Shown piece by piece: positions 15,756-58,216 of a stretch of 64,000 nucleotides of DNA. The first letter of the stretch is position 1. Every line of letters starts with the position of its first letter. Source of the DNA: Rhodothermales bacterium (lineage in GTDB: Bacteria; Bacteroidota; Rhodothermia; Rhodothermales; UBA10348); NCBI GenBank assembly GCA_017643395.1, contig JAEPNP010000003.1, positions 254,769-318,768 on the forward strand, in the 5' to 3' direction. Position numbers and translations under genes: made by a program. The notes under the pieces are model-generated. The model saw only the letters and a list, made by a program, of their open reading frames with translations, did no database searches and was not told the origin of the DNA.

Positions 15756-15834
15756 GACGATACATGGTTGGTAGCCCATGTATCGGCCGCTCGGCTCTGA
15801 ACTTTAGGCGCGGCCCGGAAAAGGGCGCTGTCGC

Positions 15835-35225: not shown

Positions 35226-35492
35226 ATGTTGGTGGTCATGGCGGAAGAGGAACGGACCAGAATGGCGTTCGAAGAGGTGTTTGTAATCCAAATGGGACGA
35301 TTCGTACCCATGTTGACTGTCCGGGTGGGTACCGAGACCCTGGAGAAGGGACATCCCGTGCACGGCTCCTACAAGCTGGACGGCATCCCGTTGTACGCAC
35401 TCATGGGTACCGAGTTGGAGTTGGTCCGGCTCATGGATTCCGTGCCCGAATTGCGAGTGCCTGGGCTCGAGCTCGGAGAGACGTCCGCCTAA
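35226..35492 (+). CDS. Hypothetical small protein (88 aa)
   Basis: This is the only ORF in a ~300-bp gap. No recognisable motif. It overlaps the convergent response-regulator stop by 4 nt. Weak call. Confidence 0.3.
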   Translation: MLVVMAEEERTRMAFEEVFVIQMGRFVPMLTVRVGTETLEKGHPVHGSYKLDGIPLYALMGTELELVRLMDSVPELRVPGLELGETSA

Positions 35493-40613: not shown

Positions 40614-40624
40614 GTCGCGAAATA

Positions 40625-40658
40625 AAAAACGATCATGGTAATACGTATGATCGTTTTT
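40625..40658. promoter_or_regulatory. Perfect 12-nt inverted repeat AAAAACGATCAT-N10-ATGATCGTTTTT in the regulator/rhodopsin divergent intergenic region
   Basis: Read directly. It starts 12 nt upstream of the regulator start (40613). Two further half-site copies lie at 40763..40773 (gtgatcgtttg) and 40806..40815 (aaacgatctc), closer to the rhodopsin start. Confidence 0.55.
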
Positions 40659-40861
40659 GGGTCCGTTCGTGGCGACTAGTGGAGTAGGGAAGCGATCGCG
40701 GAGGTTGGATCGTGCGCGACGGCAGTCGACTTTTGCAACTGGATTCGTTCAGATGTGGTTCCGTGATCGTTTGTCATACCCGATAGGCTCTTGGCGAACC
40801 CGCGGAAACGATCTCTGGACGAGCCTCCACGTTGTTTTAAACTTGAATTGCGGGTCCAATC

Positions 40862-41647
40862 ATGGAGCTCCCAACCCTCACTCCAGGCGAATACAGTCTC
40901 GTCTACAACTTTTTCTCGCTCACGATCGCCTCAATGCTCGCAGCGTTCGTGTTTTTCATCATGGGTCAGTCCCGCGTGGCACCGAAGTATCGGATTTCGC
41001 TGATGGTCTCGGCCCTGGTCGTAGGTATTGCCGCCTACCACTACTTCCGAATCAGTTCCTCCTGGGCCGGAGCGTACGTGATGGCTGACGGACTCTACAC
41101 GGCCAGCGGCGCTCCCTTCAACGATGCCTACCGCTACGTGGACTGGCTGCTGACAGTGCCACTCCTGCTTGTCGAGTTGGTGCTCGTGCTGCAGCTGACG
41201 CGCGAGAAGAGCGGTCCGATGCTGACCAAATTGGTCATTGCCGCGACGGCCATGATCGCGCTCGGCTACCCAGGCGAGATCACGACGGACGTCACCGCAC
41301 GAGCCATCTGGGGTGCGCTCTCCACGGTGCCGTTCATCTACATCCTCTATGTCCTCTGGGTGGAGCTGGGCAAAGTTCTGGTGACGCAGCCGGAGCGTGT
41401 GCGCATCCTGACACGCAACATCCGCCTGCTACTTCTGGCTACATGGGGTTTCTATCCCATTGCCTACCTCGGCCCCATGCTGGGCTTCGGGGGTGGTGAA
41501 GCGGTGGTCTTCCTGCAGGTCGGCTACTCGCTCGCAGATGTGCTTGCGAAGGCCGGCTTTGGCGTCATGATCTATGCGATTGCGCGTGCAAAGTCCGATG
41601 CCGACGGCTGGGACCTGAACGCCCAGCCCGCGATCCTGCGCGCCTGA
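40862..41647 (+). CDS. Xanthorhodopsin-type light-driven proton pump (microbial rhodopsin, DTE motif)
   Basis: 261 aa, 7 TM. Helix C is RYVDWLLTVPLLLVEL (D94, T98, E105). Schiff-base Lys is in SLADVLAKAGFG (K230, counter-ion D226). It is collinear with Salinibacter XR as I recall it: LPTLTPG.YSLV, APKYRIS.MVSALVV, NDAYRYVDWLLTVPLL, LLLATWGFYPIAY. Confidence 0.95.
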   Translation: MELPTLTPGEYSLVYNFFSLTIASMLAAFVFFIMGQSRVAPKYRISLMVSALVVGIAAYHYFRISSSWAGAYVMADGLYTASGAPFNDAYRYVDWLLTVPLLLVELVLVLQLTREKSGPMLTKLVIAATAMIALGYPGEITTDVTARAIWGALSTVPFIYILYVLWVELGKVLVTQPERVRILTRNIRLLLLATWGFYPIAYLGPMLGFGGGEAVVFLQVGYSLADVLAKAGFGVMIYAIARAKSDADGWDLNAQPAILRA

Positions 41648-41660
41648 AAACCGCGATAGC

Positions 41661-42629
41661 GTGTCGTACACGACACATATTGCCTCGGGTGTTCCCGATG
41701 CGGCCATGTCCCGCCAGGCCGACTACCTCCCGGTAGTCGCTGCCCTGGCGGGACTGGCCGCATCCGGCGCCCTCGCCGGTGGACCGATCTGGACGCTCCT
41801 GCTGCCTCTGGCAGTCAGCGCCGTCTGGTTCGGACTGCCCCATGGAGGCGCAGATCACATCGTTGCTGCTGCTCTGCGCCAGCGACTCTGGGGACCCATC
41901 GCCGCCTACCTGGCAGCGATCGGTCTCTTCCTCGCAGTCTGGTGGATCAAAGCGCCTCTGGCGTTCTGGCTGTTCATCGCCATGACGGTCTTTCACTGGG
42001 GTACGGGCGATGCCCATTTCGCGATTTCCAGAGGGTGGGTGCCTCGTTTCGCGGCACCGACCTCCGCGTTGGTCAGAGGAGCGCTGCCGATGCTTGGCCC
42101 GCTGGCATTCTTTCCAGGGCGCTTTGCCGAGGTCGAGCGCGCAGCAACTTCCCTCTTTGGAGGGTCCGGGGTTGTCGCAGGTCCCATCGCCCAGATGGTT
42201 GCACTGGGGATGTTGGCGATGATCATTCTCGCGCACGTCGGGCACCTGTACCATCGAGGAGCCTTGCGGCATTCCGGGCGTGACGTGATGGAGCTGGCCG
42301 TTCTGCTGGTCCTGTTTGCTGTCGTCGATCCGCTGGTGTCTGTCGGGGTGTATTTCACGTTCTGGCACAGTGTGCGCCATCTGGACAGGCTCGGAGGCTT
42401 CTATGAGCGGAGACTGAATGGGCGCAGTCTGCTCCGGGACGTGATTCCAACCACCCTAATCTCTTTGGTCGGCATCGCTGGTCTTGCCATTCTGGTGCCT
42501 CAGACGCCCGATTCGGGGTTTGCCTTGCTGGGTGTGTACCTGGTGGCGATTTCCGCGCTCACATTCCCTCACATGCTGGTCGTCCACCTGATGGACCGCG
42601 CTGAACACGCATTTCCGTGGAACGGCTAG
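41661..42629 (+). CDS. blh: Beta-carotene 15,15'-dioxygenase, Brp/Blh family (retinal synthesis)
   Basis: Membrane protein with the four His-containing motifs of the family: FGLPHGGADH, VFHWGTGD, FTFWHSVRH, LTFPHM. It lies 13 nt after the rhodopsin stop. The GTG start at 41661 is uncertain; an in-frame ATG lies at 41706. Confidence 0.9.
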   Translation: MSYTTHIASGVPDAAMSRQADYLPVVAALAGLAASGALAGGPIWTLLLPLAVSAVWFGLPHGGADHIVAAALRQRLWGPIAAYLAAIGLFLAVWWIKAPLAFWLFIAMTVFHWGTGDAHFAISRGWVPRFAAPTSALVRGALPMLGPLAFFPGRFAEVERAATSLFGGSGVVAGPIAQMVALGMLAMIILAHVGHLYHRGALRHSGRDVMELAVLLVLFAVVDPLVSVGVYFTFWHSVRHLDRLGGFYERRLNGRSLLRDVIPTTLISLVGIAGLAILVPQTPDSGFALLGVYLVAISALTFPHMLVVHLMDRAEHAFPWNG

Positions 42630-43507: not shown

Positions 43508-43685
43508 TACCAGAGTTTCTCCACTTACTCCCTCCGCAGCGGTGGCGTTGGGGATGGTCTTCATGGCGGCGCTGGCCGTGTCTTTCCGACACGGAGCGTT
43601 CATTTCCCCTCCGGTCGTATTGGGTGTCGGGCTGGCCCTCCTGTGGATCTTCCGGCCTCGGTCAGTCGAGGCGGCCAAGCGTTAG
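43500..43685 (+). CDS. Small 2-TM membrane protein (61 aa), hypothetical
   Basis: Begins MTDTRVSPLTPSAAVALGMVFMAALAVSF...VVLGVGLALLWIF. The ATG overlaps the upstream stop region. The 3' end overlaps the convergent LRR gene stop by 4 nt. Confidence 0.4.
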   Translation: MTDTRVSPLTPSAAVALGMVFMAALAVSFRHGAFISPPVVLGVGLALLWIFRPRSVEAAKR

Positions 43686-45850
43686 CGCGACACGACCAGG
43701 ATGCGCGAGAGGCGTTGCCCGGCGGCCTCCAAGTGCACCACGCACATGCCCGCCGAGAGGTCGGCTGTGCGTAGCGACGTTTCGTAACTGCCTGAGGAGT
43801 GATGCCCCTGTTCGATGGCCATCAGCCTTCGCCCCAGGATGTCATACAGGCTCAGGACAACGGGGCCTGGCTCGGAGAGCGAATAACGCAGCCGGGCTTC
43901 ACCCTTGGCAGGGTTGGGATAGGGCGACTCCAGCGTGACGGCGATGGCAGGCCGCTCCGGCTCAATGGTCGTGGCTGTCTCGCACTCGACCCCCGTCACT
44001 TCTCCCGGGCCGCCGGGGCCGTCAAACGCCGGCCCCATGGCGAATGCCCAGTCCCGCATGGACTCCGTCGGCGGCAGACACAGGCTGGTAAAGTTGAACC
44101 GGAAGTTGGACATGGAGAGATTCAGGAACGTCTCGGGGATGGGACCGCTCAGGTCCGCGTTGTAAAACACCTCCAGCGAGCGCAGCTGTGACAGCGAGCC
44201 AAGAGACGACGGAAGTCCACCGGTCAGATTATTCGTTCCGAGATCCAGGCCGCTGAGCTTCGCGGCGTTCCCAAGCGAGTCAGGTATGGGCCCGGAGAGT
44301 TGGTTGTCTCCAAGGTTGATGTAGCGAATCTGGGGAAGCATGCCCAACTCTGACGGAATCCCGCCGGACAACTCGTTGTTGTTCAAAAGCAGAATGCGCA
44401 GTTGGGGCATGTCTCCGTATTCCGACGGAATCGGCCCTGTAATGCGGTTGTGCTCGAGGTTCAGCTCGGACAATCGTTCCAGGCGACCCAGTTCTGGCGG
44501 GAGAGGCCCGTCGAGGCGGTTCATGCTCAGGTCCAACTCGGAAAGGTTGTCCAGATCGCCAAGCGAGCCTGGAATCGCCCCGGTCAATTGGTTATTGAAC
44601 AGATTGAGGCTGGTCAGACCTGACATGCCCCCGAGGCCCTCCGGCAACGTCTCAATCAGGTTCTGGTGCAGGTCGAGGGACTGCAGCGTAGTGAGCGCAC
44701 CAAACTCCGGTGGAATGGTCGTAAAGAAGTTTCGCGACAGGTCCATAACCCGCACGCTGGCCAGTTGACCGAATTGACCGGGAATCGGCCCAGACAGGTA
44801 GTTGCCGCGGACGTCGAGCACGCGCAGTGCGCTCAGAGCGCCGAGTTCCGGGGGCAGGGGTCCTCCCAGACGATTGGCACCAAGGTCCAGGTAAGTCAGT
44901 TGCTTGAGATTGCCGAGTTCAGGAGGCACCGTGCCTTCCAACTCATTTCGCCGCAGGGTGAGATACTCCAGGTTCAGCAACTGACCGAGCTGCGGAGGAA
45001 TGGCACCTGAGAGGCGGTTGTCGTCCAGCCGCAGCACTTTGAGAGCGGACAGTCCACCGATCTCAGCAGGAAGGCCGGTCAGCTTGTTGTCGCCTGCATC
45101 GAGGTGTTGCAGCGAGCTCAGGTTGCCGAACTCGGCCGGAAAGGAGCCCGAGAAACTGTTGTCGTGGAGGTCGAGAAACTCCAGCGCCGATAGCTGCCCA
45201 ATCTCCGGCGGCAGACGACTGTACAGGTTGTTGCCCAGGTGCCATTCCCTCAGCGCAACCAGGCCGCCAATGTTGGTCGGCAGCGTGCCGCCGAGCAGGT
45301 TGTCATTCAGCCAGGCGACTTCCAGGCTGGCCAGCGTGCCGAAGCCTGCTCCAAGGTTGATCAGCCGGTTGCGCGAGAGATAAAGGTGGGTCAGTGCCTG
45401 AAGGCCTGCCAGGCTGTCGGGTAGGCGACCTGTCAGGCGGTTGTGCTGTAGCCTCAACTCCGTCAGCTTGGTGAGCCGTCCAATCTCCGACGGGATGGTT
45501 CCGTGCAGGTCGTTGCTGGGGAGATACAGAAAGACCAACTCCGTCAATTCCCCGATCTCGGGCGGCAATTCGCCGGAAAGGTTTCGTCCTCCCAGATTCA
45601 GGCCTGCCACGCGTCCGGAGATCATCACAACTCCCGACCACGAGATCAGAGGTCCGGTCAACCAGTTGGTATTCACGTGCCAGTTTGCACCTCCGGTGGA
45701 CCGGTAGAGCGCGACCAGCGCGAGAGAGTCCGCCTGATTGGCGGCCGATGGGAGCGAAGGTCGCGCCGGCGTGTTCACAGTGGCCCCGACCGCCAGGGCC
45801 AACGTCAGCGCAGCGGCCAGGCCTGTAACCTTGTGAGGGAGTCGTTTCAG
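43682..45850 (-). CDS. Leucine-rich-repeat protein (about 20 plant-specific-type 24-residue LRRs) with T9SS C-terminal sorting domain; probable CTG start
   Basis: Repeats follow L..L..L.L..N.L.G.IP..LG (e.g. LTELVFLYLPSNDLHGTIPSEIGR). C-terminus YPNPAKGEARLRYSL...GMCVVHLEAAGQRLSRILVVSR. The track ORF starts at TTG 45802 without a signal peptide. Extending 16 codons to CTG 45850 gives (M)KRLPHKVTGLAAALTLALAVGA. Confidence 0.85.
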   Translation of the reverse strand: MKRLPHKVTGLAAALTLALAVGATVNTPARPSLPSAANQADSLALVALYRSTGGANWHVNTNWLTGPLISWSGVVMISGRVAGLNLGGRNLSGELPPEIGELTELVFLYLPSNDLHGTIPSEIGRLTKLTELRLQHNRLTGRLPDSLAGLQALTHLYLSRNRLINLGAGFGTLASLEVAWLNDNLLGGTLPTNIGGLVALREWHLGNNLYSRLPPEIGQLSALEFLDLHDNSFSGSFPAEFGNLSSLQHLDAGDNKLTGLPAEIGGLSALKVLRLDDNRLSGAIPPQLGQLLNLEYLTLRRNELEGTVPPELGNLKQLTYLDLGANRLGGPLPPELGALSALRVLDVRGNYLSGPIPGQFGQLASVRVMDLSRNFFTTIPPEFGALTTLQSLDLHQNLIETLPEGLGGMSGLTSLNLFNNQLTGAIPGSLGDLDNLSELDLSMNRLDGPLPPELGRLERLSELNLEHNRITGPIPSEYGDMPQLRILLLNNNELSGGIPSELGMLPQIRYINLGDNQLSGPIPDSLGNAAKLSGLDLGTNNLTGGLPSSLGSLSQLRSLEVFYNADLSGPIPETFLNLSMSNFRFNFTSLCLPPTESMRDWAFAMGPAFDGPGGPGEVTGVECETATTIEPERPAIAVTLESPYPNPAKGEARLRYSLSEPGPVVLSLYDILGRRLMAIEQGHHSSGSYETSLRTADLSAGMCVVHLEAAGQRLSRILVVSR

Positions 45851-45969
45851 GGGAGCTTCGGGAGAATGCCCTGCAAGCTATCCGATCGAACGAGGTCAGG
45901 CCGAACCCTTCCGGGCGGGTCGCCTGCGCACGCCTCCCGCCCGCGTCTGCGAGATGTCGAACCGCACAT

Positions 45970-46440
45970 CTACCCCAGCACATCGACCGGGTCGCCGACC
46001 CGAATCAGCCCGTCCGAAAGAATCTGCACCCGCAAACCCCCGCGCCCGATCATGGCGGGGAGCACGGTGATGCCGGTTTTCCGCTCCAGGTATTTGCAAG
46101 GCTGGCAGAGGCGCACTCCCTTGACGTCGATCTCTCCAAGGCGAATGCGCTGTTTGACCAGCGCATTCAGTTCAATGCCGGAGACCAGCACGTTGCGCCG
46201 ACTGTCGGCCGCAGTCAAGGGAACGCCTTGCCGATTCAATTCCTCGAGAGCCTCGGTAGAGATCAGCGTCAACTCTCGTTTGGGTCCGGCCCAGCGAGAA
46301 AGCGAGCCGGCATTGGCATAGTACCGGTCTCCCACCAGACCGCGGCCTGCGACGGCCCGGGCCTCCGCGACCGATTGCATCGGAGCGCCGCGATCGGCGG
46401 CGATGAAGATGGCTTCGATGCGGCCGGGAGGGACCGTCAC
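45970..46440 (-). CDS. MOSC-domain protein
   Basis: 156 aa. The pattern GDRY...ELTLISTEALEEL...RRNVLVSGI.LN......IRLGEI...GVRLCQPC is typical of the MOSC beta-barrel with its conserved Cys. The GTG start overlaps the upstream stop (GTGA). Confidence 0.85.
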   Translation of the reverse strand: MTVPPGRIEAIFIAADRGAPMQSVAEARAVAGRGLVGDRYYANAGSLSRWAGPKRELTLISTEALEELNRQGVPLTAADSRRNVLVSGIELNALVKQRIRLGEIDVKGVRLCQPCKYLERKTGITVLPAMIGRGGLRVQILSDGLIRVGDPVDVLG

Positions 46441-48842
46441 CTGTCGAGCACGACGCTTGTGACACGAACCCCTCCCGACTCCACGAGTCGGATGAAATAC
46501 ATCCCGGGAGCAAGGTGTGACAGATCCAGGCCAGTCGGCCCTCCGCTCGTCTCATGCCGGGTCATCACGCGTCGTCCCAGAAGGTCCACCACCTCAATGG
46601 TGACTGGCGCCTGGTGGCTGCCCGCGACGAGGGTCGTCCGGCCATGTGTCGGATTCGGAAACACGTGCAGACCGTCTTCGGAAGGTGAGTCGGGTGGTGC
46701 AACGGACGTGGGCGATGTCTCAGGTGCCCAAAAGGTGGAGTCTGTGGCCCAAATAAACAGGCGGTCGCTGGGCGCCCAGGAGACGAGTTTGTCGGCCCGC
46801 ATCCCTCCGCGTGCCATCAGCCGACCTTCAGCGCCAATCGTGCCCACGGCGCCTGCCGCGTCAACGGGCTGCCCGAGCGTGCCGTCTTCGGACCGGGCAT
46901 ACCAATAAGCTGTCCGGTGGCCGATGGCCGAGAGCCAGGCCTCAGAAGGGGGCATGACGATACGCAAGACGGACTTGCCATCCGGGGAGTCGAAATGTGT
47001 CGGGTCTGAAAGGGCCCCTGTAGCGGGATCGACCTGCCATCGCGAGAAGCCGCCTGCTCGACCGGTGAAAGCTTCGTCGCCGGCCGCGGTGAGCGTGATC
47101 GACGACATATCGTCATCCTGAACGACAAAGGAAAGCGCGAGCGATCCGTCTGCAGAATTACGAGTCCAGATTCGCATCTGCACATCGCCCTCGTCATACA
47201 CCGTATAGACATGCGCTCCATCCGGAGATACGGCGATGTCGGAGGCCCGTCCCTGGTACTGCTCTCCCGCGCTGAGCCTGCCGGTGACCGCGTCCCGACT
47301 CAGGACACCGATGGGTCTCCCGGAATACAGGTGGTTCCAGTCCGGGCTGAATGCCACGGCTCTCGCAGATAGGGGAAAGTCGGCGTTGTTGTAGGACTCG
47401 ATCAGGGACGGGACGCCGCTGTCGTCGTCCACGGCGTACACCGCGATTTCGTCATCGTTCGTGTGGGGGAACTGCCAGAACAGGTAGAGAAAGCGATCGT
47501 CGGGGCTGACCCGCACGGACGTCAGGATGTTCGGCCATCGCGCTCCCGAGTCAGCCACCTGGGTCGACGTCCATCGAAATGGCGCATGAGCATCAGTCCG
47601 CACAAACGTGTCCAGCGTATTGTTCTCCGTGATGGCCCAAACCCGGTTGCCGGAGTGCGCGATGGCAACGTCCGACACACGCCGCAGGCCCCAGCCCGGG
47701 TAGTCAACGCCTGAAACGGTCTTGACCAGCGTCAGCTGGCCATTCTGCTTGTCTCGTGCATAGATCGCCCATCGATTCACGTCGGGCATGGCTCCGAGCA
47801 GGTATTGGTCGTCGAGCACCGAACGTATCCATTCCAGGCTCCAGAGCCCATCGTCCGCCACCACCTGGTGGGCTTCGAGCCCTCCGTCTGCAGCAACGCT
47901 GTAGCCGTGAATCCGGCCGGTTTCGGACTCCAGCGCGTAGACGAAACGCTGATCCATGGACCCCGCCACTGCCGCAATCCTCACCCCTGCCAGGAGGCGA
48001 TCGGTCGTAGTGCCCGTGCCGGACCCATCTGCGGCGAGAATGGAGAATCCCCAGTAGTGGTAGACGGGTTGGCTCAACCCTTCCGGCACGTGCAAGTCGA
48101 TTTCGTCCGTCATGGGAACCGGAAACTCGACCAGAGTCGGGGTACCCAGTTTCCCCGTGGTCTGGTCGATGGGAATCCAGTGGTAGCGCATGGTTCTGTG
48201 GCCACTGAAACCCGCAGCGACCGACGTATTCACGTAGACACCCTGGTCGCCGGCGCGGTAGAAAACCGACGCGTGTTCGTTGTGGGCATACGAAATCTGA
48301 TCCGTCTCGACGAGGGATCCGTTGTCGGAGGCGCGCCGGAAAATGCGAACCGGCCCTCCTCCCGGGTAACCGAGAATCGTCGTGACCAGGAAGTCACCGA
48401 CGACCGCAAAGTCGCTCATTTCGGCCTCCAGGCGCTGCACCAGAGCCGGCGGGTCCGAGCGGCCTGCCTGCCTCCACACTTGGAGTCCATCGGCGGTGCG
48501 CAGGTAGATGGTGTGGCCATCGTCCGCAAGCTCCAACTGCTCAAGGTCGGCAGGACCGACGTCGGTGCTGAGACGGTGCTCCGGCACGCCGTCGGTTCCC
48601 AACTCAAACAGTCTGAGTTCACCTCGCGTGGCCGACAGGGCCCAGAGATAATCGCCGCTCTCGGTCAGTGCCCAATGGGTAAGGCCCGCCGACGGATTGC
48701 TCCGCCCGTCCGCGGTATCTCCGTAGCCGAAGACGGCCGGCGCTTCCAAGTTTGGGGCAACCTGTCCCGTCGCCCATGGCGGAAGGCTGAGCAGAGCCGC
48801 TGCGCACAAAAGGACGGTCCGTGCCCTCGTGCGACAAGTCAT
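46437..48842 (-). CDS. Secreted lactonase-like beta-propeller repeat protein with T9SS C-terminal sorting domain
   Basis: Start taken at MTCRTRARTVLLCAAALLSLPPWATGQ (ATG 48842). Recurrent blade motif: VSPDDRFLYLF, FSPDWNHLYSG, VSPDGAHVYTV, DDGHTIYLR. C-terminus VFPNPTHGRTTLV...GMYFIRLVESGGVRVTSVVLDR. Confidence 0.85.
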   Translation of the reverse strand: MTCRTRARTVLLCAAALLSLPPWATGQVAPNLEAPAVFGYGDTADGRSNPSAGLTHWALTESGDYLWALSATRGELRLFELGTDGVPEHRLSTDVGPADLEQLELADDGHTIYLRTADGLQVWRQAGRSDPPALVQRLEAEMSDFAVVGDFLVTTILGYPGGGPVRIFRRASDNGSLVETDQISYAHNEHASVFYRAGDQGVYVNTSVAAGFSGHRTMRYHWIPIDQTTGKLGTPTLVEFPVPMTDEIDLHVPEGLSQPVYHYWGFSILAADGSGTGTTTDRLLAGVRIAAVAGSMDQRFVYALESETGRIHGYSVAADGGLEAHQVVADDGLWSLEWIRSVLDDQYLLGAMPDVNRWAIYARDKQNGQLTLVKTVSGVDYPGWGLRRVSDVAIAHSGNRVWAITENNTLDTFVRTDAHAPFRWTSTQVADSGARWPNILTSVRVSPDDRFLYLFWQFPHTNDDEIAVYAVDDDSGVPSLIESYNNADFPLSARAVAFSPDWNHLYSGRPIGVLSRDAVTGRLSAGEQYQGRASDIAVSPDGAHVYTVYDEGDVQMRIWTRNSADGSLALSFVVQDDDMSSITLTAAGDEAFTGRAGGFSRWQVDPATGALSDPTHFDSPDGKSVLRIVMPPSEAWLSAIGHRTAYWYARSEDGTLGQPVDAAGAVGTIGAEGRLMARGGMRADKLVSWAPSDRLFIWATDSTFWAPETSPTSVAPPDSPSEDGLHVFPNPTHGRTTLVAGSHQAPVTIEVVDLLGRRVMTRHETSGGPTGLDLSHLAPGMYFIRLVESGGVRVTSVVLDR

Positions 48843-48877
48843 TGCAGCCGTTTCGAGCACCCCCAGGCAACCCATGT

Positions 48878-49471
48878 TTAGTCCCGTGCCGGAGTGATCA
48901 TCACGTGGGCGCCCGCAGTCCCTGGATACATCAGCCACGGTTGCAGCGGCCCGGCCGGGGAGGTAGCCAGGCCCGTGGATTCCGCTGTGGCGTACGGCGT
49001 GTAGATGACATAGCGGAGGAATCGATTCTCGACCGTTCCGGTAGCAGCATCGAAACTGTCGCCTGTCAGCACATAGAGCGCCGCGGGCGTTTCCGGCATG
49101 GGCAACTCCCCCGAATCTGCGGCGGCGTAGCGCCTGGTTCGCACGGTCTGGTTGTCCATGCCCTGGGCGCGAAGCTCGCGTCCCATCGCCATGAAGGGCT
49201 CAATGGAGGCGTGATAGCAGGCTACGTTGAAGCCATCTCGGCTGGGGTCGTCCGCGAGACAGACCAGTTCATTTTCTCCGACGCGCAGGTCGGTATAGGC
49301 ACCGTTCGCGTCGAAACCAATCACCCTCGCGCCGTCACGCAGATCTTCCGGGGCGGCCTGAACGGCCCCCGCAATCTGGTCGGCGGCAGGGACCATCTGG
49401 GCGCTGCTCGTTGCGGGGTTGCAATGCAGGAGAAGCAGACCGAGCAGTGAGGTCAGCAGGACGGCTTTCAT
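48878..49471 (-). CDS. Secreted protein of unknown function
   Basis: 197 aa. Signal peptide MKAVLLTSLLGLLLLHCNPATSSAQ. No motif I can name. Confidence 0.65.
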   Translation of the reverse strand: MKAVLLTSLLGLLLLHCNPATSSAQMVPAADQIAGAVQAAPEDLRDGARVIGFDANGAYTDLRVGENELVCLADDPSRDGFNVACYHASIEPFMAMGRELRAQGMDNQTVRTRRYAAADSGELPMPETPAALYVLTGDSFDAATGTVENRFLRYVIYTPYATAESTGLATSPAGPLQPWLMYPGTAGAHVMITPARD

Positions 49472-49546: not shown

Positions 49547-51520
49547 TCAGGCGGCCGGGACAAGGCGGCCGATTACCCCTCGCAATTCCTCGATATAAAC
49601 CGGCTTACTCAGGTACGCGTCTGCCCCTGCGGCGAGGTATTCCTCCCGGGCCCCGCTCAGTGCGTTGGCGGTGACGACGATGATGGGTACGCGTGCCGCG
49701 AGCGTGCCGGACATCCGGATCCGCTGGATAGCCTCATCTCCGGTCATCTCCGGCATCTGGATGTCCATGATGACCAGGTCGTATTCGCCGCTGCACGCCA
49801 GCTTGAACGCGTCACGGCCGTTAGTCACGGTGTCGACGCGGTCGAAGCCGTCGACCCGCAGGAATTTTTCGATCACCCGCTGGTTCAACTCATTGTCCTC
49901 TGCCAACAGCACACACCGACCGGTGGGTCCCCTGTCCACTTCCGGGATCGACACAGGCGCCGCGGTTGCCCGGGGTTCGAGCTCGACATAGAGCCCGCCT
50001 GTCGGCACGTCTACGCTGAATGTCGTTCCCCGCCCGATCTCGCTTTCCACCGCGATGCTGCCTCCCATCAGTTCGACGAGGTTCTTTACGATGGAAAGTC
50101 CAAGTCCGGCGCCGCCGTGTCGGCGGGTGTGGGAGCCATCGGTTTGATAGAACCGCTCGAAGATGTTCGACAACTCCTCCTGCGGAATACCGGGTCCGGT
50201 GTCGACGATTTCGAAGCGAACGGTCTGCTGATCAAGCGGGATGGTGCGCACCGACACCGAGCCCTGTTCGGTGAACTTTGCGGCGTTACCCAGCAGGTTG
50301 ACAAGAATCTGCTTCAGCCGGTCCGGATCCGTGTTGAAGCGGGCGTTGCGTATCTCTCCGGTCTCGATTGAGAGCCCTTTATGCTCCACGGTGCCTCGTA
50401 CCGTATCGACTGCCTCCGAAACGATTGTGGCCAGCTCGGCCTCCCGCTGATCGATGGTTACGTAGCCGGCCTCGATGCGAGCGATATCAAGCACATCGTC
50501 GATAAGGCTGAGCAGGGTGGTCGAGGACGCCTTGATCACGTCGAGCCAATCCTGCTGGGCCGAGTCGGGGCCCATCGCCTGAAGCACCTGGCAACCACCC
50601 ACAACACCGTTGAGCGGTGTTCGAATCTCGTGACTCATGGTCGCGAGGAATTCCGACTTGAGGCGAGACGCCCTTTGGGCTTCTGCGGTCTGTTGTTTGA
50701 GCTCTTCTCGCACGGCAATGTCGTCAGACACGTCGTAGTTGACTCCCGTCAGTCTGTAGTCACCCTGTTCACCGGTGCGCTGGGCCTGAGTTCGAATGTG
50801 CCGAACCTGCCCGTCCGGGTGGTGAACCCGGAACATGCCGTGGAACTCGCCTCCGAGCTCCATGACATCGGCGACCTTGCCCTGCACCCGTTCCAGATCC
50901 TCCGGATAGACCCGCTTGGACCAGAACTCGTACGACCCGTCAAACGCCTCCGGGTCTGCCCCGTAGAGTTCGAACATGGTCTCGTCCCAGCTCAGTTTGC
51001 CCGTTTCAGGATTCCATTCCCAAATGCCGATCTGACCTGCCGTCGTGGCCAGCGACAGCCTCTCGGACAGCTTGCGGGACTCACGCTCCGCCTCGGATCG
51101 CGATTCGATTTCTGACTGGAGAAGCTCGTTCTGATCGCGGTAGTGCTGGGGACCCGGAATGGCCAGTGCATCTGGCAGCAGCTTCCAGAGCATTGCCGCC
51201 GTAATCAGGGAGACGATGCCCGTAACGGCCTTCAGAAGGCCGTCTGGACCGTAGAGGGGGTTCCAGACCAGATAGATATTGAACAGGTGGGTCGCACCGC
51301 AGAGCAGTATGAACGCAGTGAACAGGTAGAACACGCTCTTGAAACCCAGGTCCTTCCGCCGTTTGGTGAAGAGGTAGAGGGCGATGGGAATCGAGAAGTA
51401 CGACAGCGCGATGACGGCATCGGATATCACATGCAGCCAGAGGATTTCTGGCTTCCAGAGGTAGCACATGCCGTGTGGCATGAACGAGCCGGACTGGAAG
51501 AATTCGGCGATCTTTTCCAT
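49547..51520 (-). CDS. Hybrid sensor histidine kinase: ETR1-like ethylene-binding transmembrane domain + PAS + HisKA + HATPase_c + REC
   Basis: 657 aa. N-terminal 3-TM domain: [20 protein letters not shown]...[15 protein letters not shown]...[20 protein letters not shown] (see finding). Coiled coil; PAS ([16 protein letters not shown]). H-box [11 protein letters not shown]-boxes DTGPGI and [13 protein letters not shown]: [10 protein letters not shown]...[14 protein letters not shown]. Confidence 0.9.
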
Positions 51521-51787: not shown

Positions 51788-52687
51788 ATGCAACGCATAC
51801 TCATAACAGGAAGCAGCAGCGGATTTGGATTCCTTGCGGCACAAACACTGACAAAAGCCGGCCATGTGGTTTTTGCGACCATGCGGGACCCCGCCGGGCG
51901 CAACTCCGAGGCGGCAGCCAGGCTGACCGAGTCTTCCTCTCAGCAGGACGGCAGATTGCACGTGCTTGATCTCGATGTGACGAGTGATGCGTCCGTCGAG
52001 GCGGCCGTGGAGCAGGCAAATGAGTTGGAGGGAGGCATTGATGTTCTGGTGAACAACGCCGGATTCGGCGGCGGTGGCCTGACGGAGACATTCACGCCGG
52101 CGCAGTTCAGCCGGATGTTTGAAGTCAACGTGTTTGGTGTTCAGCGCATGAATCGCGCCGTACTGCCGGCGATGCGGCAGCGGGGTTCCGGGCTGCTCAT
52201 CCACATCTCCAGCACCATGGGCCGCATCGTGATCCCGTTTGCCGGTGCCTACACGGCCACCAAGTTTGCCCTGGAAGGGCTCTCTGAAACCTACCGGTAC
52301 GAGCTGGCGCCCCACGGCATTGAGTCGGTCATCATCCAGCCCGGCGGGTTCGGCACCGACTTCTTTGGATCCATGCTCCAGCCGGAAGACGCTGCCCGGG
52401 TCGAGACCTATGGAGAGGCGGCCGCCATGCCCCAGCAACTCTGGTCCGGCATGGGCGAGATGATCGCGAGCGGGCAGGCCCCGGATCCGCAGATTGTCGC
52501 CGACGCCATCCTGGAGGTGATTTCGGCTGAGCCCGGCGCCCGACCGGCGCGCATGGTTGTCGATCCAATGACGGGCGGCGAGGGTCCCAAGGCGCTGAAC
52601 CAGACTGCAGCAGCCGTTCAGGAGCAACTACTCTCCGGGTTCGGCATGGAATCGTTGCTGCACGTGGCGGAATCAAGCGAAGTCTGA
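51788..52687 (+). CDS. Short-chain dehydrogenase/reductase (SDR) family oxidoreductase
   Basis: TGSSSGFG cofactor motif, NNAG, catalytic S...YTATK. Confidence 0.9.
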   Translation: MQRILITGSSSGFGFLAAQTLTKAGHVVFATMRDPAGRNSEAAARLTESSSQQDGRLHVLDLDVTSDASVEAAVEQANELEGGIDVLVNNAGFGGGGLTETFTPAQFSRMFEVNVFGVQRMNRAVLPAMRQRGSGLLIHISSTMGRIVIPFAGAYTATKFALEGLSETYRYELAPHGIESVIIQPGGFGTDFFGSMLQPEDAARVETYGEAAAMPQQLWSGMGEMIASGQAPDPQIVADAILEVISAEPGARPARMVVDPMTGGEGPKALNQTAAAVQEQLLSGFGMESLLHVAESSEV

Positions 52688-52740: not shown

Positions 52741-52781
52741 AACAGGGGACGACCGGCAGGGTCGTCCCCTGTTCTGATTTT
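52741..52781 (+). terminator. Rho-independent terminator
   Basis: aacaggggacgacc-ggcag-ggtcgtcccctgtt forms a perfect 14-bp stem followed by ctgatttt. Confidence 0.8.
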
Positions 52782-52905: not shown

Positions 52906-53274
52906 GTGATGCGCAGATTCCGCGCCATAGCTTCCATCAGCCTGCTCGCCAGCCTTTTGCTGGGCACGCTGGTAGCTCCGCTGGCCCACCTGGGCTGGAT
53001 GGAGATGGGCGGCATGGAAATGACGGCCATGTCCCACTCGATGGACATGGAGTCTGCGGCCGAAGACGGGGACTTCTTTAGCCCGTTCGAGGAGTGCATC
53101 GAGGAATGTCCGTACCTCCAGCTTCTGCAGACCCAGTCGCCCGGACTGGCCGATCTGGCCGCCCGGGACCGGGGTGCCGAGGCCGTGGAAAAGGAATTCT
53201 CGGAACAGGGAAGGCAGGATGACGGCCGGTTGGACCGCACCATCCGGCCACGTGGACCGCCAGCAGTGGCCTGA
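52906..53274 (+). CDS. Small membrane-anchored Met/His/Cys-containing protein (paralog of 61289..61633), head of TonB-receptor locus A
   Basis: 122 aa. N-terminal TM MMRRFRAIASISLLASLLLGTLVAPLAHL. Met-rich MEMGGMEMTAMSHSMDM. Cys pair ECIEEC. C-terminal IRPRGPPAVA resembles the IRGPPVAA end of the paralog. Confidence 0.6.
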   Translation: MMRRFRAIASISLLASLLLGTLVAPLAHLGWMEMGGMEMTAMSHSMDMESAAEDGDFFSPFEECIEECPYLQLLQTQSPGLADLAARDRGAEAVEKEFSEQGRQDDGRLDRTIRPRGPPAVA

Positions 53275-53407: not shown

Positions 53408-54250
53408 ATGTCTCGTCTCGTTCTGCTTCCGCTCTTTCTGGCTCTGCTCATCACTGCCTGTGACTCGAATGTCATGGACGATGAGGACATGATGGCCATG
53501 ACTACCCTGCGCCTGGAGCCCGTATTCGACGGTCAGCCGCTGGTCATGGGCAGCACATACACCCACAACGGCACGGCCATCAATTTCTCCGCCGCTCGTG
53601 TCTACATCTCTGACATCACCCTCATCGCCGAGGATGGCACCGAGACGGTGATTCAAAGCGATCCGCTGACGGTCCCGGCCAAGGCCGCCGATGACTCGGA
53701 TGTGACGCACACAGTCTCGAACCGGGTAATTTTCGCCAAGCACGACCACGCGCATCACGAATACGATCTGGGTCACGTGCCGGTCGGCGAGTACCACGGC
53801 GTGGAATTCAACGTCGGCATTGCCGGTACGGACAACCGCATCGACGCGACGCAGGTGCCTGCAAGCCACCCGTTGGCCAAGCAGACCGACCTCAACAACC
53901 ACTGGAGCTGGTCCAACGGCTACATCTTCGTGCGCCTGGACGGCCAGGTAGATTCCGACGGCGACGGCACGCCGGATACGGCCTGGGAGACCCACCTTGG
54001 CAAGGACAACTTCCTGCGCGAAGTGCACCTGCACGCAGACTTTGAAGTGGATCAGGAAGGCACGACGCAGATCCATGTGATGCTGGACTACCACAAGCTG
54101 CTGGAGGGCGTGGACCTCGCTGACCCGGTCCAGCGCATCTGCCACACGGGCAACAATCTGCCGGTGGCCAACGCGGTTGCCAGTGAGATCTCGGGCTCCT
54201 TCATGTTCCACGGCGTGCACGACTCCGACCACGACGGACACGACCACTGA
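53408..54250 (+). CDS. MbnP-like lipoprotein (metal-binding partner of a di-heme peroxidase), His-rich C-terminus
   Basis: Lipobox LLITAC followed by acidic DSNVMDDEDMM. ARVYISDITLIAEDG, GEYHGVEFNVGIAG, and HPLAKQTDLNNHWSWSNGYIFVRLDG...THLGKDN match the MbnP pattern I recall (RFYVS..L...DG; G.Y.G..F.LGVP; PL....M.W.W..GY.F; HLGS). Tail HGVHDSDHDGHDH. A di-heme CCP gene follows immediately. Confidence 0.7.
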   Translation: MSRLVLLPLFLALLITACDSNVMDDEDMMAMTTLRLEPVFDGQPLVMGSTYTHNGTAINFSAARVYISDITLIAEDGTETVIQSDPLTVPAKAADDSDVTHTVSNRVIFAKHDHAHHEYDLGHVPVGEYHGVEFNVGIAGTDNRIDATQVPASHPLAKQTDLNNHWSWSNGYIFVRLDGQVDSDGDGTPDTAWETHLGKDNFLREVHLHADFEVDQEGTTQIHVMLDYHKLLEGVDLADPVQRICHTGNNLPVANAVASEISGSFMFHGVHDSDHDGHDH

Positions 54251-55212
54251 TGCGAGCCTGGACTGCGCTCATAGCGGTCCTGGTGTCGGGTTGTGTGTTG
54301 GCGGGGCCGGAAGGCTCGGAATCGCTGTCGGTGCCTGATGACCTGCCGGCCGGCTTCGAGCCGATTCCGGTGCCCGCCCACACACCCCTGACAGCCTCGC
54401 GGGTGTCGCTCGGTGAACGCCTGTTCTTCGATCCGTCGCTCTCGGCGGATGGCAGCGTTTCCTGTGCGTCCTGCCACAAACCCGAACTGGCGTTCGCGGA
54501 TGACGTGGCCGTCAGCCCGGGAGTGGAAGGACGAACCGGCATTCGCAACGCACCTTCCCTGGTCAATGTGGCATGGCAGGACCTGCTGTTCTGGGACGGA
54601 GGGGCCTTTACGCTGGAGCTACAGGCCGTCGGGCCACTGGAGGCCAGGGACGAAATGGACCGGCCCCTCGCCGAGGTACTGGAGCAACTGAACGGCGACC
54701 CTTCCTACCGGGAGGCCTTTTTGGACGCGTTCGGCGATGAGGCCACGGTGCAGACGTTCACGCAGGCACTCGGCGCGTACCAGCGCACTATTCGCAGCGG
54801 GGGATCCCGCTTCGACCGGGAGGCGCTGACGCCCCACGAGGACGCGGGTCGTGCGCTTTTTTTCGGCCGGGCAAACTGCGCCTCCTGTCACAGCGGGTTT
54901 CTGCTGACGGATCAGAGCTTCCGCAGCAACGGACTGTCCGTCGCTGCGGACTCCGGCCGGGCACGCATCACGCTGCGTCCGGAGGATCGCGGCCTGTTCA
55001 AGGTCCCTTCCCTTCGAAATGTGAGCCTCACGGCACCCTACATGCACGACGGCCGCTTTGAGTCCATCGAAGATGTGATCGAGCACTACGACAAGGGGGG
55101 CGAGACCGCATCGCCCGGCATCCGGCCGCTGAATCTGACCGCGGCGGAGAAGCGGCAGCTCGAGGCGTTCTTGCGCGCGCTGGAGGACACCTCAATTCGC
55201 ACGGGACTATGA
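54250..55212 (+). CDS. Di-heme cytochrome c peroxidase / MauG-family enzyme (MbnH-like)
   Basis: 320 aa. Two CxxCH heme sites (SCASCHKPE, NCASCHSGF). Family motifs: RNAPSLVN, LFWDG, FKVPSLRNV, APYMHDG. The ATG shares one base with the upstream TGA. Confidence 0.9.
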   Translation: MRAWTALIAVLVSGCVLAGPEGSESLSVPDDLPAGFEPIPVPAHTPLTASRVSLGERLFFDPSLSADGSVSCASCHKPELAFADDVAVSPGVEGRTGIRNAPSLVNVAWQDLLFWDGGAFTLELQAVGPLEARDEMDRPLAEVLEQLNGDPSYREAFLDAFGDEATVQTFTQALGAYQRTIRSGGSRFDREALTPHEDAGRALFFGRANCASCHSGFLLTDQSFRSNGLSVAADSGRARITLRPEDRGLFKVPSLRNVSLTAPYMHDGRFESIEDVIEHYDKGGETASPGIRPLNLTAAEKRQLEAFLRALEDTSIRTGL

Positions 55213-55985
55213 AACGAATCCTGTTGACCCTATTCGGCCTGTCGCTGGTCGGATGTGCCCCTGACATCACGGAGACGGACTTCTTCAGCCGTCACCCGGA
55301 CGCACCGGTGGGGGACGAGAGTGTTGAGGTAACGTCGGTGCAGGACGGTGCCCTGGAGCTTCGGGTCACGGCGCCTCGCCCATTACAATGGGGTCACAAC
55401 CTGATATCACTGGAAGCCTTTGCGGGCGGCGACCCTGCCGGCGCGGAGGCAACCGTCACGCCCTACTTCCTTGTTGAGGGCGACCGTATTCCGGTGCCTT
55501 TTGATCCCGTAACGCTCAGGAGCGGGGACGAACCAGCGGTCCTTTATCTGCTTGAGCCTGTTGAGCTCGATGGGCGCTGGGTGCTGGATGTGGTCTGGCA
55601 AAGTGCCGGCAGCTCGGGGACGCGCACGGTCGATGTCACAGTCCGCCCCGGTCTCTGGGTGGGCACGGTGCCCGGAACCGGAGAGTACCTGACGTGGGTC
55701 CGTCCCACGGAGCCGCGCACCGGGCAGGACGTGCTCGAGCTAGCGCTGCATCGCTTCATTGAGGGCCGCTTCCAGCCAGTTGAGGGCGTGCCGTTCGACC
55801 TCTATCCGTATATGGACATGGGCGGGGGAGAGGGTCACAGCACGCCGTATGCGCCCCCCGGAAGTGTCGGAAATGGACGGTATAGGGGCGAGATCAACTT
55901 CATTATGTCCGGCGGTTGGGACCTGACTGTGTATGTGGGCGCCAACCGGACGGCGGTGCTCTTTGAAGGATTTGAGGTGCGATGA
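55209..55985 (+). CDS. Lipoprotein with YtkA/FixH-like domain
   Basis: Lipobox LSLVGC. C-terminal GRYRGEINFIMSGGWDLTVYV matches the (Y.....F.M.G.W.L.V.V) ending I associate with YtkA-like domains. ATGA overlaps on both sides. Confidence 0.55.
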   Translation: MKRILLTLFGLSLVGCAPDITETDFFSRHPDAPVGDESVEVTSVQDGALELRVTAPRPLQWGHNLISLEAFAGGDPAGAEATVTPYFLVEGDRIPVPFDPVTLRSGDEPAVLYLLEPVELDGRWVLDVVWQSAGSSGTRTVDVTVRPGLWVGTVPGTGEYLTWVRPTEPRTGQDVLELALHRFIEGRFQPVEGVPFDLYPYMDMGGGEGHSTPYAPPGSVGNGRYRGEINFIMSGGWDLTVYVGANRTAVLFEGFEVR

Positions 55986-58216
55986 TGATGAGACTCATTC
56001 TCCTACTCGTTTTGCTGACGCCGGCGCAGGTGATCGCGCAGTCGCTGCATGGTCGCGTGCTGGATCACGCCACCATGGAGGGCATCCCGCTGGCCACCCT
56101 GCTTGTGGTAGGTACCGATCAGGGCACGGCGGCCGACATCGACGGACACTTCCACCTGGATCTGCCCGAGGGCGCGCGCGAACTCCGCGTCTCTGCCGTT
56201 GGTTACACGTCGGAGCGCTTCCTGATTACGGACGCCATGCGTTCCGGCGAGCCCTTCCACCTGCATCTGCATCCCAACGTGATTCAGCATCAGGAGGTGG
56301 TGGTGAGTGCAGACGGCGGTGCGGTGCGGGACCCAGCGGCATCGCCCCATGTGCAGCGCGCCACCGAAGATCTGATGGATCGCGTGCCGGGTGCCGACTT
56401 CATTCAGCGCGCCAATTTTGCCTGGGAGCCCGTGATACGCGGCATGAGTGGCGGCCAGATTGGCCTGGTGATAGACGGCATCAAGGTCATCGGCGCCTGC
56501 ATCGATGAGATGGACCCCACCTCAGCGTACGTGGAGGTGGAAAACCTGGAGCGCCTCGATCTGACCAAGGGCGGGTTTGATCTGAGCAGCGGCTCCCAGA
56601 TTGGTGGTGCAATCAATCTGGTTACCCAGAAGCCGTCACTTTCTGACCCGTTCAGCCTGTCCAGCGAAGCCGGCTTCGAGTCGGCCTCCGGGCTTCGGCG
56701 CGGGCGCGTGGTAGCATCCGCCTCCGAAGGTGACGTCGGTGTGCGTTTCAGCTATTCGTACAAGCGAGCGGCGGATTTCCGGCCCGGGGGCGGCGCAGCC
56801 GACGTGGCCGGTTCGGGGTACGAAAAGAACAATTACAAGGCGGACGTCGCGTGGCAACCGCACCATGCCCATCGTCTGGAGGCCTCATTTCTCGGGGACA
56901 ATGCGTGGGGCGTCGGCTATCCGGTTCTTCTGATGGACGCCACGCTTGCCAAGGCCCGGATTTACAGCCTGACGCACACGCTGACGCCCCATAGCGGTGG
57001 CGCGCCGCATCATGTCGAGACCAAGGTGTATCACAACACCGTGGATCACTGGATGGACGATTTCGGCCGCGATGTGCTGGAGCGCCAGGTTATGCGCGGC
57101 ATGAATATGCCCATGTATGGCCTCACGCGCACGAGCGGTTTGATCAGCACCGCGGACATCCGGCTTGATGGGGGCAATCGCGTGGGGGTGACCCTCGATG
57201 CCTATCGCACGAAGAGTTTCGGTGACATGTGGATGTTCAGTGTCTTCGAGGGCATCCAGGACATGTACCTGTTGAATCTGGGCGATGTGGTGGTCAACCA
57301 TGCGGCCCTCGCAGTGAACGGTACGTACCACCTTTCAGAGCGGCTGTCGCTGCGGGCCGACGCCCGAATGGACGTGTCGCCTCGAGATGTGAAGCGGGAG
57401 GAATCCCGGTCGATTCTCGAAGGACGATGGGACACGGATGATCTTTCCCGCACGTACGTGCTGGGCAATCTCAGCACAACGCTGGAGTATGCGTTTTCGC
57501 CGGCCACGCGGGTGCGGTTCGGCATGGCCAACGTCAGCCGTCTGCCCACACACATCGAGAACTACGGCCACTACGTGTACAACTACGTGGACGGCTACTT
57601 CTATACCGGAAATCCCGATCTGAAGCCGGAGCGTTCGAGGCAAGCGGAAATCGGCATCGATCATTGGGGGCAACGAGCAGGATTGCGCGCCAGCGTATTC
57701 GCCAACCACGTGCGCAACTACATCATCGGTGAGGGGGACACCGGTCTGACGGAGGGGTCATCTACCTACCGGTTTCGGGTGTACCGCAACGCGGACGCAG
57801 CGCTATTGATGGGCGGCGAAGTGTCTGCGGTTGCCGAGTTGGGCAAGGGCATCTCAATCGCAGGCGCGGGGTCGTACACGTGGGGGCAGAACCTGGAGTT
57901 CGACGAGCCGCTTTACCTGATGCCGCCCCTCAGCGGCATGCTCAGCCTGCGGGCTGATCGGGGGAGACGCTGGGCGGAGCTCGAAGCACGCATGGCCATG
58001 CCCCAGAACCGCGTGTCCCGCCAGGTTGCCCGGGAGGACGGCACGGACGGCTACTTCATCCTGAATGTGCGTGGCAGTCTGCCGGTGCCGGGTGGCGCCG
58101 AGCTGAAGGTGGGTGTGGAGAACCTGCTCGACACCTTCTACCAGGAGCACCTCAGCTTCGGCAATCTGCCGAACGAGGGGCGCAACCTGTACGTAGCGCT
58201 CGCCTGGGCGTACTAG
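55982..58216 (+). CDS. TonB-dependent receptor with N-terminal CarboxypepD_reg domain (locus A)
   Basis: 744 aa. Signal peptide MMMRLILLLVLLTPAQVIAQ. CarboxypepD_reg: LHGRVLDHATMEGIPLATLLVVGT...DGHFHL. Plug: PVIRGMSGGQIGLVIDG. Beta-barrel with terminal aromatic ...LYVALAWAY. Confidence 0.92.
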   Translation: MMMRLILLLVLLTPAQVIAQSLHGRVLDHATMEGIPLATLLVVGTDQGTAADIDGHFHLDLPEGARELRVSAVGYTSERFLITDAMRSGEPFHLHLHPNVIQHQEVVVSADGGAVRDPAASPHVQRATEDLMDRVPGADFIQRANFAWEPVIRGMSGGQIGLVIDGIKVIGACIDEMDPTSAYVEVENLERLDLTKGGFDLSSGSQIGGAINLVTQKPSLSDPFSLSSEAGFESASGLRRGRVVASASEGDVGVRFSYSYKRAADFRPGGGAADVAGSGYEKNNYKADVAWQPHHAHRLEASFLGDNAWGVGYPVLLMDATLAKARIYSLTHTLTPHSGGAPHHVETKVYHNTVDHWMDDFGRDVLERQVMRGMNMPMYGLTRTSGLISTADIRLDGGNRVGVTLDAYRTKSFGDMWMFSVFEGIQDMYLLNLGDVVVNHAALAVNGTYHLSERLSLRADARMDVSPRDVKREESRSILEGRWDTDDLSRTYVLGNLSTTLEYAFSPATRVRFGMANVSRLPTHIENYGHYVYNYVDGYFYTGNPDLKPERSRQAEIGIDHWGQRAGLRASVFANHVRNYIIGEGDTGLTEGSSTYRFRVYRNADAALLMGGEVSAVAELGKGISIAGAGSYTWGQNLEFDEPLYLMPPLSGMLSLRADRGRRWAELEARMAMPQNRVSRQVAREDGTDGYFILNVRGSLPVPGGAELKVGVENLLDTFYQEHLSFGNLPNEGRNLYVALAWAY

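Follow-up and report, generated by a model that had tools for sequence, protein, structure and literature searches.

The question raised by this locus is whether a bacterium of the Rhodothermales carries a sensor for ethylene built on the same copper-binding membrane domain as the ethylene receptors of plants. Here we report the analysis of a 64,000-nucleotide stretch of the Rhodothermales contig JAEPNP010000003.1 (assembly GCA_017643395.1; hereafter the window), which contains a gene for a hybrid sensor histidine kinase of 657 amino acids. With a probability of roughly 65%, we read its product as an inner-membrane hybrid histidine kinase with a Cu(I)-dependent ethylene-binding three-helix bundle of the bacterial type, by which ethylene or a similar small alkene would be sensed. 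The parts of the gene are as follows (all on the minus strand).

49547..51520, minus: hybrid sensor histidine kinase gene, 657 amino acids (open reading frame and translation; five Pfam domains)
51146..51520, minus: ethylene-binding-type transmembrane domain, residues 1-125 (Pfam ETR1_N PF25487, binding residues, AlphaFold2 (AF2) model)
51158-51445, minus: span of Pfam ETR1_N (PF25487), residues 26-121 (E = 1.8e-36)
51455..51484, minus: PHGxCxxW motif, residues 13-22 (conservation among nearest representatives)
51359..51451, minus: predicted transmembrane helix 1, residues 24-54, with D34, Y41, I44 and P45 (AF2, hydropathy peak at about 38-42, residue mapping)
51263..51340, minus: predicted transmembrane helix 2, residues 61-86, with I71, the putative Cu(I) ligands C74 and H78, and T77 (AF2, hydropathy, mapping)
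51161..51253, minus: predicted transmembrane helix 3, residues 90-120, with K97, the equivalent of ETR1 Lys91 (AF2, mapping)
50741..50995, minus: PAS_3 domain, residues 176-260, cytoplasmic linker or second sensor (PF08447, E = 3e-16)
50465..50659, minus: HisKA dimerisation and phospho-acceptor domain, residues 288-352, with H297 in SHEIRTPLN (PF00512, E = 9.7e-19)
50000..50332, minus: HATPase_c domain, residues 397-507, with N box at 408, G1 at 440, F at 454 and G2 at 472 (PF02518, E = 4.3e-32)
49577..49912, minus: fused receiver, residues 537-648, with phospho-acceptor D586 and E541/D542, T617 and K639 (PF00072, E = 1.4e-25)

Judged by its sequence, the N-terminal domain is a genuine ETR1-type ethylene-binding domain (EBD), with a resemblance far beyond chance. 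The ETR1_N model was matched from position 2 to position 97 of 97 with 124.7 bits, against a gathering threshold of 27 bits. An original prediction, made from the letters of the window, had assigned the domain to this type, and both the profile search and the residue alignment bear it out; the interval that it had marked corresponds exactly to kinase residues 1-125, and the three peptides that it had quoted are all present in the translation. The protein was aligned using MAFFT with the plant ethylene-receptor fragments P0203, P0204, P0207, P0216 and P0243 and with an ETR1 N-terminus; this ETR1 sequence was 85-91% identical to the best plant fragments and, as a query of the protein database, recovered, at identities of up to 91%, plant entries called 'ethylene receptor', 'ethylene response sensor 1' and 'EIN4'. 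In the alignment, D25, Y32, I35, P36, I62, C65 and H69 of ETR1 correspond to D34, Y41, I44, P45, I71, C74 and H78 of the window protein at a constant offset of +9, so that the identical spacing claimed for these seven residues holds, while K91 corresponds to K97 (offset +6) and the equivalent of T68 (T77) is present too. The seven are the residues required for ethylene binding in the alanine scan of Wang et al. (2006), as it is cited in PMC11819568. D34 and K97 are the aligned counterparts of the Asp25-Lys91 polar pair by which helix 3 is coupled to the binding site; PMC10266040 describes the parts played by Asp25, Lys91, Cys65 and His69.

In a BLASTP comparison with a plant 'ethylene receptor' fragment, 97 residues were aligned at 40% identity (E = 4e-18), with a single three-residue gap, located in the loop between helices 2 and 3, which is that much shorter in the window protein than in plant receptors. 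Residues 1-25 could not be aligned to the plant receptors and hold the PHGxCxxW motif where these have their Cys4/Cys6 region. An alignment to ETR1 without gaps over about 125 residues, as first proposed, is therefore correct in substance, though not for the loop and the N-terminal 25 residues. The AF2 model of residues 1-130 (mean predicted local distance difference test score 88.2, predicted template modelling score 0.75) has helices at 24-54, 61-86 and 90-120, which match three peaks of hydropathy and give the three N-terminal transmembrane helices expected of an EBD. The loop between helices 1 and 2 (TKRRKD, read from the sequence) is positively charged, which argues for a topology with the N-terminus outside and the kinase inside. 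A sequence search of the PDB with residues 1-151 gave zero matches at E <= 10, and a Foldseek search of the PDB with the AF2 model returned just generic three-helix membrane subunits such as NuoK (E > 0.4). The domain identity, the presence of all residues known to be needed for binding, the three-helix topology and the intact kinase and receiver motifs can be regarded as established for this protein at the level of sequence and predicted structure.

The translation retains the motifs of a kinase and of a receiver (H297, the N, G1, F and G2 boxes, D586 and K639), and thus the acceptor His, the N, G1 and G2 boxes and the receiver Asp and Lys on which a hybrid-kinase phosphorelay depends. It also contains the PHGxC motif, PAS domain and HisKA/HATPase_c catalytic residues that characterize the bacterial EBD-PAS-histidine kinases of the AzoEtr1 type, whereas it departs from the plant ETR1/ERS1 architecture in having PAS_3 instead of GAF and PHGMC instead of an N-terminal CxC. 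The order EBD, PAS, histidine kinase, receiver had been recognized before and is confirmed by Pfam, but the statement that it mirrors ETR1 needs amendment, as the protein is closer to the AzoEtr1 type with a receiver added and has no GAF domain. An identical protein is on record (MBO6575683.1 / MBO6780332.1) from a 1.04-Mb contig of the Rhodothermales bacterium metagenome-assembled genome (MAG) GCA_017642665.1. The NCBI label of MBO6575683.1 is only 'response regulator', and the NCBIfam matches of the kinase were all below threshold and to generic hybrid kinases (TorS, BarA, ArcB).

The PHGxCxxW motif precedes helix 1 on what is predicted to be the periplasmic side, beyond the Pfam ETR1_N model and in a non-helical segment of lower confidence in the AF2 model. 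Its residues are almost invariant among the 150 nearest representatives (P15 in 148, H16 in 149, G17 in 149, C19 in all 150, W22 in 149), a degree of conservation equal to that of the copper ligands. Among the matches to the plant ETR1 query, which cannot bias retrieval towards the motif, it was present in four of four bacterial-type and none of 59 eukaryote-type proteins; used alone as a search pattern, it retrieved at least 600 metagenomic stretches, 591 of them encoding EBD relatives. Variants include MPHGFC in Azospirillum and IPHGHC in cyanobacteria (PHGxCYLW in Phormidesmis, P0042), and since proteins of both groups carry the motif, it is compatible with ethylene binding. A full-text string search of the literature for the motif found nothing relevant, which is a weak test. 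It might serve to capture copper, form a second metal site or contribute a dimer contact. A more specific proposal, which we consider tentative and rather doubtful, is that H16 and C19 form a bacterial-specific site for Cu(I) capture and hand-off, or a second site, that loads the pocket from the periplasm with an MbnP/MbnH/TonB gene cluster near the kinase (see below) as supply line, plants having switched to loading by RAN1 and to the Cys4/Cys6 disulfide. The motif is a cheap target for mutagenesis in AzoEtr1 or SynEtr1, and this may be the more useful by-product of the analysis.

A phmmer search of 1.84 billion representative proteins with residues 1-130 recovered 8,519 relatives at E <= 1e-3, 6,160 at E <= 1e-10 and 1,341 at E <= 1e-30. 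The seven binding residues and K97 are kept in 148-150 of the 150 nearest representatives (C74 and H78 in all 150, K97 in 148). ETR1_N was found in all of the 86 nearest relatives, together with HATPase_c (69), HisKA (61), Response_reg (31), each of five PAS families (25-32), HWE_HK (8), Hpt (6) and GGDEF (3); receiver-bearing hybrid kinases account for 31 of the 86, and the same ETR1_N-PAS-kinase-receiver architecture recurs in P0288 (667 amino acids) and P0354 (684 amino acids). Named relatives belong to cyanobacteria (Coleofasciculaceae, Phormidesmis), Amaricoccus, Exilibacterium and Azospirillum. The nearest one, P0051, is 70% identical in the EBD and consists of ETR1_N, HisKA and HATPase with an adjacent response regulator. 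In a scan of genome contigs with the full-length protein, matches to the kinase core predominated, the top match (L001, Dongiaceae) having a different membrane domain; an EBD gene was present in one of 80 loci (L028, Anaerolineales), and no Rhodothermales orthologue was recovered in that scan. The 90%-identity cluster of the window protein has a single member.

These numbers agree with reports that EBDs are widespread, prokaryotes included (PMC10266040), and that putative ethylene receptors occur in several bacterial phyla (PMC11819568). Homologues outside the cyanobacteria are not rare: the relatives make up 8,519 representative clusters, and Pfam has a family devoted to the domain. The view in the original prediction that functional receptors beyond plants were demonstrated in cyanobacteria alone is out of date, because AzoEtr1 of the proteobacterium Azospirillum brasilense, an EBD-PAS-histidine kinase of 525 amino acids, binds 14C-ethylene (PLoS Genet 2025, PMC11819568). 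Its first 130 residues, expressed in Pichia, do so saturably (PMC11819568), as do SynEtr1 and ETR1 (PMC11819568, PMC10266040). AzoEtr1 controls biofilm formation and root colonisation; the wild-type gene restored biofilm, and genes with D35A or C75A, predicted non-binders, were tested for the same rescue (PMC11819568). Direct evidence of ethylene binding in the fungus Rhizophagus irregularis is among the work cited in PMC11819568. The window kinase is thus an uncharacterised member of a very large known group of bacterial ETR1_N sensor kinases, of the AzoEtr1 type with a fused receiver.

A split arrangement was also observed among the relatives, in which a stand-alone ETR1_N gene (127-137 amino acids) is followed by a histidine-kinase gene lacking a sensor, the two abutting or overlapping by a few bases. 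One such EBD gene, P0017, is found on at least 24 contigs, and the arrangement is real in some lineages, not an assembly error. Examples are located at:

L170, 5001-6432: split EBD and kinase locus
L171, 4669-6728: split EBD and kinase locus
L172, 2242-4301: split EBD and kinase locus

By homology with ETR1, SynEtr1 and AzoEtr1, from which we infer copper loading, ligand, sign of the response and output, the kinase might work in the following way. C74 and H78 would bind a Cu(I) ion within the outer leaflet's half of the membrane, with D34 either coordinating the copper or orienting H78. Ethylene or a similar small alkene would partition into the membrane and bind to the copper, and the resulting change would be relayed by the polar D34-K97 pair to helix 3, the coiled linker, the PAS domain and the kinase core. 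Autophosphorylation of H297 would thereby be modulated, and the phosphoryl group would pass to D586 of the fused receiver and from there presumably to partners encoded at other loci, an Hpt protein and a response regulator.

Several points weigh against this interpretation. The ethylene assignment is drawn from homology, for the window protein as for the homologues in Rhodothermales and Bacteroidota, and ligand specificity across the family is an assumption, because only a handful of its thousands of members have been assayed. Plant receptors lack anything equivalent to the invariant PHGxC. Sensing could also be done, independently or even dominantly, by the PAS domain. The best full-length relative scores 435 bits, compared with 1484 for the protein against itself, and no orthologue of known biology was found. 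Finally, the cognate Hpt protein or response regulator is not adjacent: no Hpt or receiver gene was found within 10 kb on either side of the kinase, and the window has only two other receiver-like reading frames, at 15039-15803 and 35492-36313, about 34 and 14 kb away. The 197-amino-acid gene downstream of the kinase was considered as an Hpt partner and rejected; it encodes a signal-peptide protein with no Pfam match and is not Hpt-like. No sigma-70-like promoter was found between 48700 and 53500, which is expected for the phylum and uninformative. Recent horizontal transfer was likewise rejected, since the G + C content is uniform (0.58-0.65 across 40-62 kb) and gives no sign of it.

A gene cluster of copper type lies on the opposite strand, 1.4-6.7 kb upstream of the kinase start. 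The features on this side of the kinase are:

51788-52687, plus: short-chain dehydrogenase/reductase (SDR) gene, between kinase and copper cluster (Pfam)
52741-52773: strong terminator-like hairpin, between SDR gene and copper cluster
52906-53274, plus: Met/His-rich secreted protein, 122 amino acids, with signal peptide and the run MEMGGMEMTAMSHSMDME, no Pfam match
53408-54250, plus: MbnP (Pfam, E = 3.2e-34)
54250-55212, plus: MbnH/MauG-like di-haem peroxidase (Pfam, E = 6.8e-54)
55209-55985, plus: YtkA-like protein (Pfam)
55982-58216, plus: TonB-dependent receptor (Pfam)
58509-60707, minus: second TonB-dependent receptor, CarboxypepD_reg-type, convergent

MbnH makes a kynurenine-containing copper site in MbnP. 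The 122-amino-acid protein, from its composition, looks like a Cu(I)-binding Met-motif member of the MbnP/MbnH cluster. No methanobactin biosynthesis genes were seen alongside the MbnP/MbnH operon, which is therefore read as the MbnPH copper module of a non-methanotroph, and, as far as family membership goes, the label 'copper-acquisition' is reasonable. The cluster had been noted as lying beside the kinase and as making it a good test case. The cluster is real, but its adjacency is not conserved: in 80 metagenomic loci, each with an EBD reading frame and comprising 756 kb in total, no homologue of MbnP, MbnH, the YtkA-like protein, the SDR or either hypothetical protein was found (0 of 80), and the same homologues were absent from the five contexts inspected gene by gene (P0051, P0052, P0288, P0354, P0304). 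Conserved synteny of EBD kinases with a copper cluster is thereby rejected, the neighbourhood is treated as coincidental or lineage-specific, and, as it is not conserved among relatives, it does not mark the kinase as a special test case. The locus of P0051 (L084, 1-9300) has genes of zinc type (ZrgA, ZIP transporter, CobW, ABC transporter), a metal context unlike that of the window.

Among the alternatives, the one to be taken most seriously, though we consider it unlikely, keeps the Cu(I) site and the signalling path and replaces the ligand: in a marine or saline heterotroph, propene, isoprene-type alkenes, CO (carbon monoxide) or isocyanides might be sensed instead of ethylene. Plant receptors bind other olefins, CO, isocyanides and cyclopropenes via the same copper, which speaks for this possibility, as do a host that is not obviously plant-associated and carries a rhodopsin and a carotenoid oxygenase, and the invariant features of the bacterial subfamily (PHGxCxxW and a loop between helices 2 and 3 that is shorter by three residues), which could tune specificity. 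However, every ethylene-binding residue is conserved in the window protein, and AzoEtr1, which shares both the motif (as MPHGFC) and the loop length, binds ethylene at doses in the parts-per-billion range (PMC11819568).

That the kinase is instead a sensor of copper status, with Cu(I) occupancy of C74/H78 (with or without H16/C19) as the signal and the MbnP-MbnH-TonB-receptor cluster as its regulon, is improbable. The EBD does need copper, an additional invariant His/Cys pair is present at the periplasmic face, and the cluster with its Met/His-rich secreted protein starts only 1.4 kb from the kinase start on the opposite strand; the SDR gene and the strong hairpin nevertheless separate the two, and the cluster is missing from all 80 loci and all five contexts of relatives. 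The copper sensor kinases known from bacteria (CusS/CopS type) sense through periplasmic domains of another fold. Moreover, ETR1 binds its copper tightly, as a cofactor and not as a signal that could be exchanged (PMC10266040). Least probable, and very unlikely in our estimate, is that the three-helix domain is a mere membrane anchor or dimerisation module that has kept its ETR1-like residues by descent, the PAS domain being the real sensor. PAS domains are common sensors, but polar Asp, Cys, His and Lys residues within transmembrane helices are kept in 148-150 of 150 relatives, which indicates strong selection for the site, and many relatives (ETR1_N-HisKA-HATPase, e.g. P0051) have no PAS domain at all, so that in these the EBD must be the sensor. 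Sensing of ethylene or a similar small alkene through the EBD is our preferred reading of the window kinase.

The wider surroundings of the kinase contain the following genes, their Pfam assignments taken from a table computed beforehand for the source contig:

39714-40613, minus: HTH_17 and B12-binding regulator, divergent from the rhodopsin gene
40862-41647, plus: microbial rhodopsin
41661-42629, plus: BCD-family carotenoid oxygenase, after the rhodopsin gene

Together (39714-42629), rhodopsin, carotenoid oxygenase and B12-binding regulator look like a light-harvesting, light-regulated module. The strand of the kinase continues downstream (43682-48938, minus) with genes for a leucine-rich-repeat protein of 706 amino acids, a lactonase-type beta-propeller protein of 833 amino acids and a small MOSC-domain protein; the two large proteins both have C-terminal sorting domains of the type IX secretion system, and the products of this region would be secreted or surface proteins without evident link to the kinase. 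Such sorting domains and the CarboxypepD_reg TonB-dependent receptors nearby, together with the assignment of the MAG to Rhodothermales, agree with the non-cyanobacterial host of Rhodothermaeota/Bacteroidota type that had been proposed from the letters. Papers searched by assembly and run accession gave no match that would place the sample in a habitat.

If functional, the kinase would extend testable sensing of ethylene or small alkenes to the Rhodothermota/Bacteroidota and to a probably free-living, rhodopsin-bearing bacterium. It would also fit the idea, already current, that ethylene is a general environmental cue (from photochemistry of dissolved organics, or from algae) beyond its role as a plant-microbe signal. 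Because the domain has a Pfam family, thousands of bacterial homologues and a validated proteobacterial receptor, what the gene contributes is one more data point and no new concept; as an additional case in which to test ethylene sensing by bacteria not associated with plants it is reasonable, and it would not surprise a specialist.

Among known systems, the window kinase most resembles AzoEtr1. P0264, an Azospirillum sp. protein of 525 amino acids with EBD, PAS and kinase, aligns without gaps to window residues 7-126 (120 residues), and its D35, C75, H79 and K98 agree with the numbering of AzoEtr1; the representative of its 90%-identity cluster, P0158, is 55% identical to the window EBD. AzoEtr1 and the window protein share the PHGxC motif, the length of the helix 2-3 loop, the corresponding residues (D35/C75/H79/K98 and D34/C74/H78/K97) and, after the EBD, a PAS domain followed by a HisKA/HATPase kinase. 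They differ in that AzoEtr1 has no fused receiver and its response regulator is the next gene, whereas in the window the receiver is fused and no partner is adjacent; in that identity outside the EBD is about 25-30%; and in their hosts, a root-associated alphaproteobacterium (A. brasilense / A. baldaniorum) and a Rhodothermales MAG. SynEtr1 (UirS/PixA, slr1212) of Synechocystis sp. PCC 6803 likewise combines a bacterial EBD with a histidine kinase and true His-Asp phosphotransfer (PMC11819568), but has a phytochrome-like photosensory domain between EBD and kinase and is also a light sensor, whereas the window protein has PAS_3 and a receiver (a comparison based on the literature). Arabidopsis ETR1/ERS1 share the three-helix EBD with the seven binding residues at the same spacing, and ETR1 also ends in a kinase and a receiver; unlike the window protein, the plant receptors have GAF in place of PAS, dimerisation by a Cys4/Cys6 disulfide in place of PHGxC and a helix 2-3 loop longer by three residues, and according to the literature they are located in the endoplasmic reticulum and signal via CTR1/EIN2 rather than by an obligatory phosphorelay.

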